DNA from: a virus
Taxonomy: Duplodnaviria > Heunggongvirae > Uroviricota > Caudoviricetes
Length of the DNA: 64,000 nucleotides
Reading direction: 5' to 3' (one strand)
Virus record (IMG/VR): IMGVR_UViG_3300045988_010208
The notes under the pieces were generated by a model. It did not search any database. It had not been told where the DNA came from and was given only the letters and a program-made list of their open reading frames with translations. The position numbers and the translations under genes were made by a program. This document shows, piece after piece, positions 13,536 through 15,610 of the stretch (within the stretch, counting starts at the first letter, position 1; each line of letters begins with the position of its first letter).

Positions 13536-13715
13536 AATGACCTCAAAGTTATATTAAATTTTGTATTACATTGAGTATAAAAATAAGCTATAACACCTGA
13601 CTTGTCAACAGATTTTATAGCTTATTTGGCAGATTTTTTATAAGGCTACTGCCATCCTTCCATACATTACCTAACCAAGCCGAACATCACACAACCAGAC
13701 CGAGCCGCACCCCGC

Positions 13716-13794
13716 CTTATTAAAAGACCCTCTTTAAAGGCCTTTTAAAAAGGTGAGTCTCATTTTAATGTAGTTGAGACTAACTACCCACACC
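13716..13794. repeat. intergenic repeat module A, copy 1
   Basis: ~79 bp CTTATTAAAAGACCCTCTTTAAAGGCCTTTTAAAAAGGTGAGTCTCATTTTAATGTAGTTGAGACTAACTACCCACACC; about 90% identical to 15230-15308; contains inverted repeat GTCTCA..TGAGAC. Confidence 0.8.
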
Positions 13795-13845
13795 TTACCT
13801 CACCTGACCTGACCTGACCCTACCTAACATTACCGTGCCGCACCT

Positions 13846-13921
13846 CACTTAAAAACCTTCTTAGAAGACTCTTAAGTGATGTAATCGAATTTTAATGTAG
13901 CTCCGATTAACTACCCATACC
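13846..13921. repeat. intergenic repeat module B, copy 1
   Basis: CACTTAAAAACCTTCTTAGAAGACTCTTAAGTGATG... with inverted repeat CACTTAA/TTAAGTG; recurs at 15360-15395. Confidence 0.7.
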
Positions 13922-13965
13922 TGACCAAACCTTGCCAAACCTTACCTCACCCAACTACACCGAAC

Positions 13966-14002
13966 CTTATTAAAAGACCCTCTTAAAGACCTTTTAAAAA
14001 GG
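13966..14002. repeat. intergenic repeat module A, partial copy
   Basis: CTTATTAAAAGACCCTCTTAAAGACCTTTTAAAAAGG, first half of module A, fused to a terminator hairpin. Confidence 0.7.
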
Positions 14003-14018
14003 AGCCTCCGAAGAGGCT
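13990..14018 (-). terminator. intrinsic terminator (minus strand) after 14030-14470
   Basis: Minus-strand RNA: hairpin AGCCUC-UUCG-GAGGCU followed by UUUUUAAAA. Confidence 0.6.
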
Positions 14019-14029
14019 GCCTAGTCAAC

Positions 14030-14470
14030 TTAGAAAGGTTTTCTACGTTGCTTGTTAATGTTAGCTTTCATAGCAGCTAAATGGTTTTGCTGTTCAATTA
14101 GTCGTGAACGTTCTTGATGGCTAAGTGCCATAGTGTTCACATTCTCAATTGCTTGAGTGGCTTGCTTTAAAGCTCGACCAATCTTACCAGACATTTTACG
14201 TTTTGCAATAGTTGCTTGATGCTTAGGTTCAACCACACGATAACCAACACCCATTGAAGCAACCAGATAAATCTTCTCTTCTTTAAGAAGCTTCTCAATA
14301 AACTTCTCAAGTCGGTTTAGACGTGTAAGCGCATAAGCCTTCATTTCATCTTCGTACTTAACAATGTCACCTTGATAAGTTGGCTTCACAATACCTAAGA
14401 AGGTGTCCATCTCAGAATGTGATACAGTGTCACCGTAACTAAACTTTGCTGCTAATGCTTTCGTATTCAT
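14030..14470 (-). CDS. hypothetical protein
   Basis: 146-aa ORF; basic C-terminus. Confidence 0.4.
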   Translation of the reverse strand: MNTKALAAKFSYGDTVSHSEMDTFLGIVKPTYQGDIVKYEDEMKAYALTRLNRLEKFIEKLLKEEKIYLVASMGVGYRVVEPKHQATIAKRKMSGKIGRALKQATQAIENVNTMALSHQERSRLIEQQNHLAAMKANINKQRRKPF

Positions 14471-14472
14471 AA

Positions 14473-15075
14473 TTAAACGTTACCTTCTGAAATAACTTCT
14501 ACAGAAAAACGACCAAAGCGTGGACGCCAATCACCTACACCACAAAGGTTACCAGCATTTTCCAGAACCATCAAGAGTTCCTCTTTGGTAATTTGCTCTT
14601 CATCGAACATCAAACCGAACTCTACAGACCAGTCACGGAAGATTGGACGGTAGCTCATAACTCGTGCTGTACCAATCTTAACAGACTTAGCATAGATAAA
14701 GTCTGGATTCTTAGCAAGTTCTTGTGGGTTTGCTGGACAGTTCTTGATAGTCATTGGGAAGACTACATCTGTCAGCATAATGGCTCGGTCAATTACCTTA
14801 CCAAGTTTGTTGAGTTTTGCACCAGACTTGATACAAGCCTCAATCATCTCACCGTTCATAACAAAACCTAGCTGCTCATCGTAGTAACAAGAAGTTACCA
14901 GTTGACTTTCTGCTAAGAGCGCATAGTCTTCGTCAGTCTTTTTACGTTTACTGGACAGAGACTTGTGATATTTTGTCAGAGGGTTTAATGGGTCTGACAG
15001 CGTATCGTTATGGCTCAAGAAAGGACGAGTACCAGTGATTTTGACATTTAACAGTTTCATAGCATTTAGCTCCAC
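14473..15075 (-). CDS. hypothetical protein
   Basis: 200-aa ORF, 2 nt from the downstream gene. Confidence 0.4.
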
Positions 15076-15229
15076 ACTTTAGTTGATTGTTAAGTTGTTT
15101 GTAAAGAACCCTCAACAGAAGACTCTTTAGAAACTTGGTAGATTTTTAACGTGGCTACTACCATCCACCCATACCAGACCAGACCAGACCAAGCCAAGCC
15201 CAACACTACCGAACCGGACACGACCAGAC

Positions 15230-15308
15230 CTTATTAAAAGACCCTGTTTAAAGACCTTTTAAAAAGGTAAGTCTCATTTTAATGTAGCTGAGACTAACTA
15301 CCCACACC
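15230..15308. repeat. intergenic repeat module A, copy 2
   Basis: Near-identical copy of 13716-13794 in a different intergenic region. Confidence 0.8.
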
Positions 15309-15359
15309 AAACCATAGCATACATCGCATTACCGGACAGAACCATACTTTACCAAACAT

Positions 15360-15395
15360 CACTTAAAAACCCTCTTAGAAGACTCTTAAGTGATG
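15360..15395. repeat. intergenic repeat module B, copy 2 (partial)
   Basis: CACTTAAAAACCCTCTTAGAAGACTCTTAAGTGATG. Confidence 0.7.
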
Positions 15396-15461
15396 CTGGT
15401 GAGTACCCGTTGGTTTATGCTGCTCAGTATACTCACCAAATTTTCTATGTCAACAACTTTT

Positions 15462-15608
15462 TATATAAAAGTCCTGATAGCTATATGTGTTACAAAACAG
15501 AAGATTGTGAACAAGACACCCATTGCAAAGGATGTGTTCAAAAGTTTACTTGTTATGTAAGACAATACAAAGACAACTAATGCAAACAGAATGATTGTGC
15601 TTAACATA
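15462..15608 (-). CDS. possible small hydrophobic (two-helix) membrane peptide, about 48 aa
   Basis: Not in the ORF track (<60 aa). My translation: MLSTIILFALVVFVLSYITSKLLNTSFAMGVLFTIFCFVTHIAIRTFI; starts a few nt after the ligase stop. No strong RBS; coordinates approximate. Confidence 0.25.
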
Positions 15609-15610
15609 GT

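Follow-up and report, generated by a model that had tools for sequence, protein, structure and literature searches.

The window analysed here is a 64,000-nucleotide stretch of the Caudoviricetes record IMGVR_UViG_3300045988_010208. Its source is a phage of the Felix O1 type (Felixounavirus): the 3.2 kb surrounding the feature described below match 259 phage records at 80–99% identity, almost all of which belong to Felixounavirus and related Ounavirinae. Between about 10 and 21 kb of the window every gene lies on the minus strand, and both intergenic regions in question were therefore read in the minus sense. An earlier, sequence-only reading had seen two kinds of repeated hairpin-containing modules, A and B, in these regions. 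In the minus sense, the locus consists of a promoter (P1), two guide RNAs (vrRNAs), the gene vipr, the gene vap1 and three more vrRNAs, and each vrRNA is made of 10–12 GGYNN repeats followed by a pseudoknotted tail of about 35 nt. Positions 13580–15453 very probably form a type II VIPR (Viral Interference Programmable Repeat) locus of the SUSP1 clade, in a Felixounavirus. Its parts, in minus-sense order, are as follows.

15426..15453, minus strand: P1, sigma-70-like promoter TTGACA-16-TATACT with 11 of 12 consensus matches, kept in every related locus examined
15398..15437, no strand assigned: inverted repeat GGTGAGTA...TACTCACC over the -10 and start region of P1, read from the sequence, a candidate operator
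15357..15395, minus strand: hairpin H(b) (module B), 18-bp stem with four G·U pairs, directly 5' of guide u1
15304..15359, minus strand: vrRNA-u1 tract, 11 pentamers, NN = TT AA AT TC CC AA GA AT AT TT GT
15266..15303, minus strand: u1 3' tail, pseudoknot PK(a), GGGUAGUU-AGUCUC-AGCUAC-AUUAAAA-UGAGACU (part of module A)
15228..15268, minus strand: hairpin H(a) (rest of module A), between vrRNA-u1 and vrRNA-u2
15167..15228, minus strand: vrRNA-u2 tract, 12 pentamers, NN = CT CG CC TC AG TG TT TT CT CT CT AT
15137..15172, minus strand: u2 3' tail, pseudoknot variant E2, stem S1 GUGG/CCAC, stem S2 GGUAG/CUACC, A-rich linker
14473..15060, minus strand: vipr, 195 aa, minimal RAMP protein
14030..14470, minus strand: vap1, 146 aa, VIPR accessory protein
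14003..14018, minus strand: intrinsic-terminator-like hairpin and U5 run, directly 3' of vap1
13964..14002, minus strand: hairpin H(a) (previously a "half copy" of module A), 5' of guide d1
13917..13964, minus strand: vrRNA-d1 tract, 10 pentamers, NN = TC GT TG GA AA TT AA TT CA AT
13883..13916, minus strand: d1 3' tail, pseudoknot PK(b), stem 2 wholly swapped to AAUCGG/UCGAUU in a compensatory manner
13842..13882, minus strand: hairpin H(b) (module B), between d1 and d2
13790..13845, minus strand: vrRNA-d2 tract, 11 pentamers, NN = GC AC AA TA AG CA CA CA GA AA GT
13752..13789, minus strand: d2 3' tail, pseudoknot PK(a)
13715..13754, minus strand: hairpin H(a), between d2 and d3
13658..13714, minus strand: vrRNA-d3 tract, 11 pentamers, NN = GG GC TC CT TG GA TC TT TA AA AT
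13628..13663, minus strand: d3 3' tail, pseudoknot variant E1, S1 AAGG/CCUU, S2 GGCAG/CUGCC
13580..13627, minus strand: P2, TTGACA-17-TATTTT, with the -35 hexamer in the loop of an inverted repeat of 19-nt arms, then T5; candidate promoter and/or terminator-operator of the downstream 127-aa gene, marking the edge of the VIPR block

VIPR systems combine a minimal RAMP protein of about 20–22 kDa (Vipr), an accessory vap gene and flanking vrRNAs, which carry 9–16 GGY/NN repeats and a 3' tail of about 40 nt that is pseudoknotted in the SUSP1 clade (bioRxiv 10.64898/2026.04.26.720920, June 2026). The NN dinucleotides specify a double-stranded DNA target in which one base is skipped per repeat; there is no protospacer-adjacent motif, and transcription is silenced (10.64898/2026.04.26.720920). 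The representative locus is that of Escherichia phage SUSP1, for which four vrRNAs were found by small-RNA sequencing, and the natural targets of its clade are satellite phage in E. coli genomes (10.64898/2026.04.26.720920). Existence of the vrRNAs as RNAs of about 100 nt, their co-purification with Vipr and repression of transcription were shown for SUSP1 and P. fulva (10.64898/2026.04.26.720920). In the SUSP1 structure, Vipr builds a right-handed helical filament with one protomer per repeat; H17 and D177 read G1, R138 and W178 hold G2, the Y3 pocket excludes purines, and the 3' pseudoknot was seen directly by cryo-EM (10.64898/2026.04.26.720927). Parsed in the same way as the window, the SUSP1 locus (L005) has one upstream and three downstream tracts, equal to the four sequenced vrRNAs.

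Module coordinates given by the sequence-only reading were recovered exactly. CTTATTAAAAGACCCT is found at 13716, 13966 and 15230, the full module A spans 13716–13794 and 15230–15308, and module B matches without a difference at 13846–13878 and 15360–15392, where shuffled sequence gives an expectation of zero. A repeat search of the window confirmed the internal inverted repeats of both modules, and the tracts between them are indeed C-rich and G-poor on the plus strand, with C in strong excess over G (GC skew to -0.52). No further copy of either module was found elsewhere in the 64-kb window. What repeats across the two regions is a unit of about 125 nt, which occurs five times. The modules were resolved by comparison with related phages and covariation analysis, both of which had been suggested with the original observation. 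Module A is made of a pseudoknot (its GTCTCA...TGAGAC half) and hairpin H(a), whereas module B is hairpin H(b); the idea of structural-RNA modules specific to this gene block was in the right direction.

When the window locus was compared with 29 related loci, a common grammar emerged. In its first half, P1 and H(b) precede a tract, then a pseudoknot–H–tract block repeated 0–2 times, a terminal pseudoknot "E", a ribosome-binding site, the 195-aa gene and the 146-aa gene. The second half runs from the terminator through H(a), a tract, 0–2 further pseudoknot–H–tract blocks and another "E" to P2 and the 127-aa gene.

The CA-rich tracts themselves are strict (GGYNN)n pentamer arrays with a 5-nt period. 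They had been treated as filler between the modules, but they are information-bearing guide repeats, and a regular-expression scan of all 64 kb detected exactly five such arrays, all in this locus. Statistics were computed on 925 pentamers from 78 unique tracts of 30 related loci. Position 1 is G in 78%, T in 15%, A in 7% and C in 0.1% of the pentamers, position 2 is G in 96.6%, and position 3 is a pyrimidine in 99% (T 88%, C 11%), while positions 4–5 are essentially random (0.08–0.10 bit). Right-aligned tracts vary in length only by multiples of five, with 8–19 repeats per tract among the related loci (mode 11). This profile, in which G2 and Y3 are nearly invariant, G1 is less so and NN is free, matches the published structural roles of G1, G2 and Y3.

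The 3' tails fall into four variants (PKa, PKb, E1 and E2), all of which fit a single H-type pseudoknot plan whose linker is A-rich. Pairing is kept in 98.4% and 96% of cells, as compared with only 29–50% in slid controls, and compensatory double changes affect 3 and 4 pairs, in both helices; these changes separate a few paralogue families, so that the independent events are few. An Rfam covariance-model scan gave only chance-level matches, with E values of at least 4 and scores well short of the gathering cut-offs. Every guide is preceded by a hairpin, H(a) or H(b), whose basal stem is conserved and whose apex tolerates a 22-nt insertion. Each hairpin holds 3.5–4.1 G·U pairs and all 45 unique copies fold better in the minus sense than in antisense, which identifies the minus strand as the functional one. 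Both sigma-70-like promoters, P1 and P2, lie on this strand in the sense of the flanking genes; P1 would drive the upstream vrRNA array and probably vipr-vap1 too. Because other VIPR types have hammerhead ribozymes at the equivalent position, we infer by analogy that H(a) and H(b) may be maturation or spacer signals that separate adjacent vrRNAs. In some relatives the 22-nt insertion extends the apical stem of H(b) to give a 61-nt version with an unchanged basal stem (L002 3827–3890, L004 3162–3225 and relatives).

The two genes enclosed by the arrays, to which the sequence-only reading had drawn no link, encode the effector Vipr and the accessory protein Vap1. The 195-aa protein is 97% identical to SUSP1 Vipr, which is above the 90% threshold set for the SUSP1 clade in the preprint, and the 146-aa protein is 99% identical to SUSP1 Vap1. 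All published GGY-contact residues (H17, E71, M72, R138, C173, D177, W178 and R179) are present in the window Vipr, and G170, G174, R179, P180, G183 and F185 are invariant over 41 Vipr homologues. No family match for Vap1 was found in Pfam, PADLOC or NCBIfam. At the level of sequence, the characters of the clade are thus all present: a minimal RAMP Vipr, the contact residues, an adjacent vap1, GGY/NN arrays, pseudoknot tails and 1-nt-skip targets.

These targets were located only through the vrRNA tails that the satellites themselves carry in E. coli genomes. When the locus was compared by blastn with 5,426 complete E. coli genomes, 104 chromosomes gave a match of 63–95 nt. The matches correspond to solitary vrRNAs with an E2-like tail, in which stem 2 covaries, inside islands of about 11.5 kb. 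Each island encodes two serine recombinases, an HNH endonuclease, a tape-measure protein and a baseplate protein, along with small unknown genes and about 2 kb of non-coding DNA. Strains that bear such a satellite include E. coli 2013C-3492 and APEC O18. The satellite baseplate protein is 68–69% identical, and the tape-measure protein 32% identical, to the proteins of Felix O1 and of the window. The single vrRNA lies in the non-coding DNA but no vipr is present (L169 18264–29795; also L171, L172 and L173).

Four satellites (L169, L171, L172 and L173) were searched with the window guides, each GGY being replaced by one wildcard (1-nt skip). The best match of d2 was 21/22, in a 107-aa gene of two satellites (L169 and L172), that of d1 was 19/20, in a 69-aa gene of two satellites (L169 and L171), and that of u1 was 21/22, in a 235-aa gene of a satellite. 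The predicted sites include L169 23234–23265 for d2, L169 24696–24724 for d1 and L172 18017–18048 for u1. Controls with flanking chromosome, the 64-kb window and skip rules of 0, 2 and 3 gave at most 14–17 matches. For the whole group, 27 of 71 unique guides matched the four satellites at ≥85%, as compared with none of the 71 in controls (77 kb of flanking DNA, other skip rules). The skipped base is the wobble position for d1, u1 and u2. The satellite genes targeted by window guides belong to no known family. Computationally, at least three of the five window guides thus appear to be addressed to genes of an E. coli satellite of about 11.5 kb.

The mechanism is taken over from the two preprints on the SUSP1 protein, to which the window Vipr is 97% identical. 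One Vipr protomer would bind per repeat, so building a helical filament along the vrRNA; the filament would flip out and bury each GGY, leaving the NN dinucleotides exposed. These would pair with double-stranded DNA, skipping every third base, and the resulting R-loop triplex would block transcription of the target. Since at least three of the five guides seem to address satellite genes, the locus would be a weapon against a satellite parasite of the phage.

Several observations weigh against this assignment, or against parts of it. All wet-lab evidence for VIPR comes from SUSP1 and P. fulva rather than from the phage of the window. Among the guides, u1 has several degenerate non-GGY repeats (TGT, AGT, TGC and GCT), u2 reaches only 18/24 in the tape-measure gene and is a weak candidate, and no target of d3 was found in the four satellites. 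For d2, the base skipped is the second of the codon in the annotated gene rather than the wobble position. IMG/VR, when scanned for exact patterns of the d2, u2 and d3 targets, gave no match. The stretch from the vap1 terminator to the downstream array showed no sigma-70-like promoter. Finally, the H hairpins are absent from the discussion in both preprints, and the role given to them here is our inference.

In the Felix O1 group, whose phages are in wide use for Salmonella typing and phage therapy, the cassette is frequent without being obligatory. In a tblastn search of the phage collection, Vipr was found in 132 records, about 118 of them Ounavirinae (≥90% identity), whereas 259 carry the surrounding region, and the number of units among relatives ranges from 1 to 5. 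No vipr or vap1 was found by tblastn anywhere in the Felix O1 genome (86,155 bp). Felix O1 and 8 other sampled relatives, all devoid of the two genes, have kept 1–2 orphan guide units, which still comprise promoter, hairpin, well-formed GGYNN repeats and tail. In Felix O1 itself, P1, H(b), one 12-repeat guide, the E1 tail and P2 persist as a single fused region (AF320576 57632–57913, guide at 57758–57817; L006 2917–3198). These repeats are not mentioned in the 2010 Felix O1 genome paper, and a literature search for Felixounavirus transcriptomes returned nothing useful. The orphan guides are nearly as well formed as the others (DGY in 94.8% vs 96.9%), and 4 of 11 match satellites at ≥80%. The structure of the orphan unit suggests that it arose when the two repeat regions recombined. 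Orphan units may be maintained by selection: they could act in trans with Vipr borrowed from a relative in the same cell, as seems to be the case for the vipr-less satellites, or they could titrate a rival's Vipr. This proposal, together with the one that the H hairpins are dedicated maturation signals cut by Vipr or by a host RNase such as RNase III to define vrRNA ends, is tentative and in our view rather unlikely.

Such variation in content is what would be expected if the repeats were mainly recombination substrates, whose modules move or delete genes and whose tracts have no function. The model for this would be the PeSL mobile regulatory cassettes of T4-type phages, reportedly described by Arbiol, Comeau and Krisch in 2010 and said to consist of a sigma-70 promoter and stem-loops. 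As at the present locus, these are repeated intergenic promoter/stem-loop modules that flank small gene cassettes present or absent among close relatives. The 222-nt direct repeat common to the two regions (77% identity, 13660–13881 and 15174–15395) flanks exactly the two-gene cassette, which in Felix O1 and the 8 sampled relatives is replaced by one fused region; the incidence of Vipr (about 118 Ounavirinae records vs 259 with the region) and the spread of 1 to 5 units point the same way. However, PeSLs have neither a periodic guide tract nor a pseudoknot tail nor a RAMP protein, and recombination leaves unaccounted for the near-invariance of positions 2–3 alongside random positions 4–5, the compensatory changes in the tails and an NN code that fits satellite genes only under the 1-nt-skip rule. 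We consider this explanation very unlikely, and recombination is best seen as a consequence of the architecture rather than its purpose. The recombination hot spots proposed by the sequence-only reading stand to this extent only, as a side effect: the cassette-less, Felix O1-type relatives look recombined between the flanking repeats.

Another reading takes the arrays for a cis-regulatory leader, in which a multimeric TRAP-like protein would bind the GGU triplets and toggle S1 against S2, between antiterminator and terminator, for the downstream genes. The TRAP site of the Bacillus trp leader is a (G/U)AG triplet with a spacer of about 2 nt, repeated about 11 times and bound by a closed 11-mer ring. 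A conserved triplet and a variable spacer of about 2 nt recur about 11 times here too (the modal repeat number is 11), with one subunit of a homo-oligomer for each. In addition, the arrays lie between a promoter and genes, the pseudoknot helices S1 and S2 overlap, and at PK-H(a) junctions S2 is followed by ACC-UUUUU. Yet the PK-H(b) junctions have no U-run, so that no terminator is possible there, the repeat number is not fixed (8–19), and covariation keeps both helices, as in a pseudoknot (the SUSP1 one was seen by cryo-EM) rather than in a switch. The hypervariable NN also carry target information that a pure attenuator would not need. VIPR differs from TRAP in its GGY triplet, which is not (G/U)AG, its open helical filament and its information-bearing spacers, and the proteins are not homologous. 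An attenuator of this kind is therefore still less probable than a recombination cassette.

The sequence-only reading had considered the plus strand, whose tracts would, if transcribed rightward, suit Rho-utilisation-like sites; a variant would make them antisense small-RNA genes. The C-rich, G-poor composition of the plus strand is the point in favour. The functional strand is nevertheless minus, and its RNA is G-rich and C-poor (42% G, 8.8% C), which is the opposite of a Rho-utilisation site. Rho prefers Y-C dinucleotides, whereas the invariant dinucleotide of the plus strand is A-C. No promoter-like site faces rightward into the tracts, and every hairpin loses 3–4 pairs on that strand (G·U becoming C·A). 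The RNAs detected by small-RNA sequencing in SUSP1 are those bound by Vipr. This reading can hardly be credited.

Other candidates were considered and mostly rejected. T7-type primase sites (GGGTC/TGGTC) do not fit, as only 16% of pentamers have C at position 4, nor do two-tier G-quadruplexes, since position 1 is G in only 78% and the invariant positions are 2–3. Random positions 4–5 speak against Shine-Dalgarno-like ribosome landing pads. An R-loop or origin role of G-rich non-template pentamers, comparable to immunoglobulin switch regions, would leave the strict phase and position-specific conservation unexplained. The Chi octamer is absent in phase, which discounts Chi-like or RecA-preferred GT-rich DNA, and ToxI-like type III antitoxin repeats differ in unit length and architecture. 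Coding potential of the tracts was dismissed on their 5-nt period and frequent stop codons. For the H hairpins, HK022 put-like antitermination RNA and RNase III sites are possible but unsupported identities. As for CRISPR-Cas, the window has no array of identical repeats and unique spacers, and the neighbours of the locus are a ligase, hypothetical proteins and a helix-turn-helix (HTH) regulator, with no cas1 or cas2.

The resemblance of VIPR to the Class 1 CRISPR-Cas backbones (Cas7/Csm3/Cmr4) lies elsewhere: in both, one protomer sits on each fixed RNA interval, a thumb flips bases out periodically and a conserved handle caps a variable guide. VIPR differs in that it has no repeat-spacer array, no cas1/cas2 and no nuclease, in that its guide is noncontiguous (of every five RNA bases 2 are read and 3 hidden, of every three DNA bases 2 are read and 1 is skipped), and in that a lytic phage encodes it and directs it against a satellite. 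The closest known system is the type II VIPR of SUSP1. The two loci have the same position between the ligase and the 127-aa gene, the same gene pair, GGY/NN repeats and pseudoknotted tail, the same scaffold of promoter and hairpins, and the same class of target, E. coli satellites whose tail genes resemble those of Felix O1. They differ in genus (Suspvirus for SUSP1, Felixounavirus for the window), in the number of guides (five, 2 + 3, in the window vs four, 1 + 3) and in all NN codes.

Beyond this group, an exact (GGTNN)×8 scan of IMG/VR returned at least 120 stretches. They are spread over many unrelated viral contigs, often as several arrays split by a short conserved element, and a gene of the same strand often follows directly downstream. 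In unrelated contigs, (GGYNN)n arrays reach up to 32 repeats (L053–L127; for example L081 1072–1750, L079 1–700, L085 and L068 4900–7400). Their separators differ, being TTTCTCTGGCGAGAAATTTTTAT in L081 and a GC-rich hairpin in L079. These arrays are presumably other VIPR types.

Some further features of the window were recorded. A gene for a Cro/CI-type HTH regulator (12646–12975) lies just downstream of the P1/P2 inverted repeats (15398–15437 and 13581–13627), which are candidate operators. Between the ligase gene and P1, a 48-aa open reading frame (15461–15607, minus strand; phrog_22006, function unknown) is present in most relatives, and other sequence takes its place in SUSP1. The region 57200–58620 is large, non-coding and rich in repeats; it holds 17 of the 50 TGTTAAG motifs of the window and tandem units of CTGTTAAGAA (×6.8) and TTGTTAGAAGGC (×4.9). 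Smaller TGTTAAG clusters occur in the non-coding DNA of the satellites, and the TGTTAAG-rich region may be a regulator-binding or origin region shared with them. At 6784–6838 and 9034–9114, tandem repeats of 27 and 42 nt (ACTGGTGCTCACAC...) lie within coding sequence and match repeats that the Felix O1 genome paper describes in the tail-fibre gene.

Together, these results show that the feature is genuine but already known: the two repeat-filled gaps are VIPR guide-RNA arrays, and the genetics, biochemistry and structure of an orthologous locus were worked out in 2026. Small additions to the preprints are the inter-guide hairpins, the promoters and the orphan guides of the vipr-less Felix O1. 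The window does not add a new type of system; rather, the published rule was independently reproduced from raw sequence in another phage genus, in its repeat statistics, tail covariation, RAMP fold and 1-nt-skip targeting. VIPR has been proposed to pre-date CRISPR, and needs only one protein of about 22 kDa and a guide of less than 100 nt. It is a newly described form of RNA-based DNA recognition, of which the inter-guide hairpins and the vipr-less orphan guides are two loose ends flagged here. For its own phage, the window supplies concrete predicted targets in E. coli satellites.

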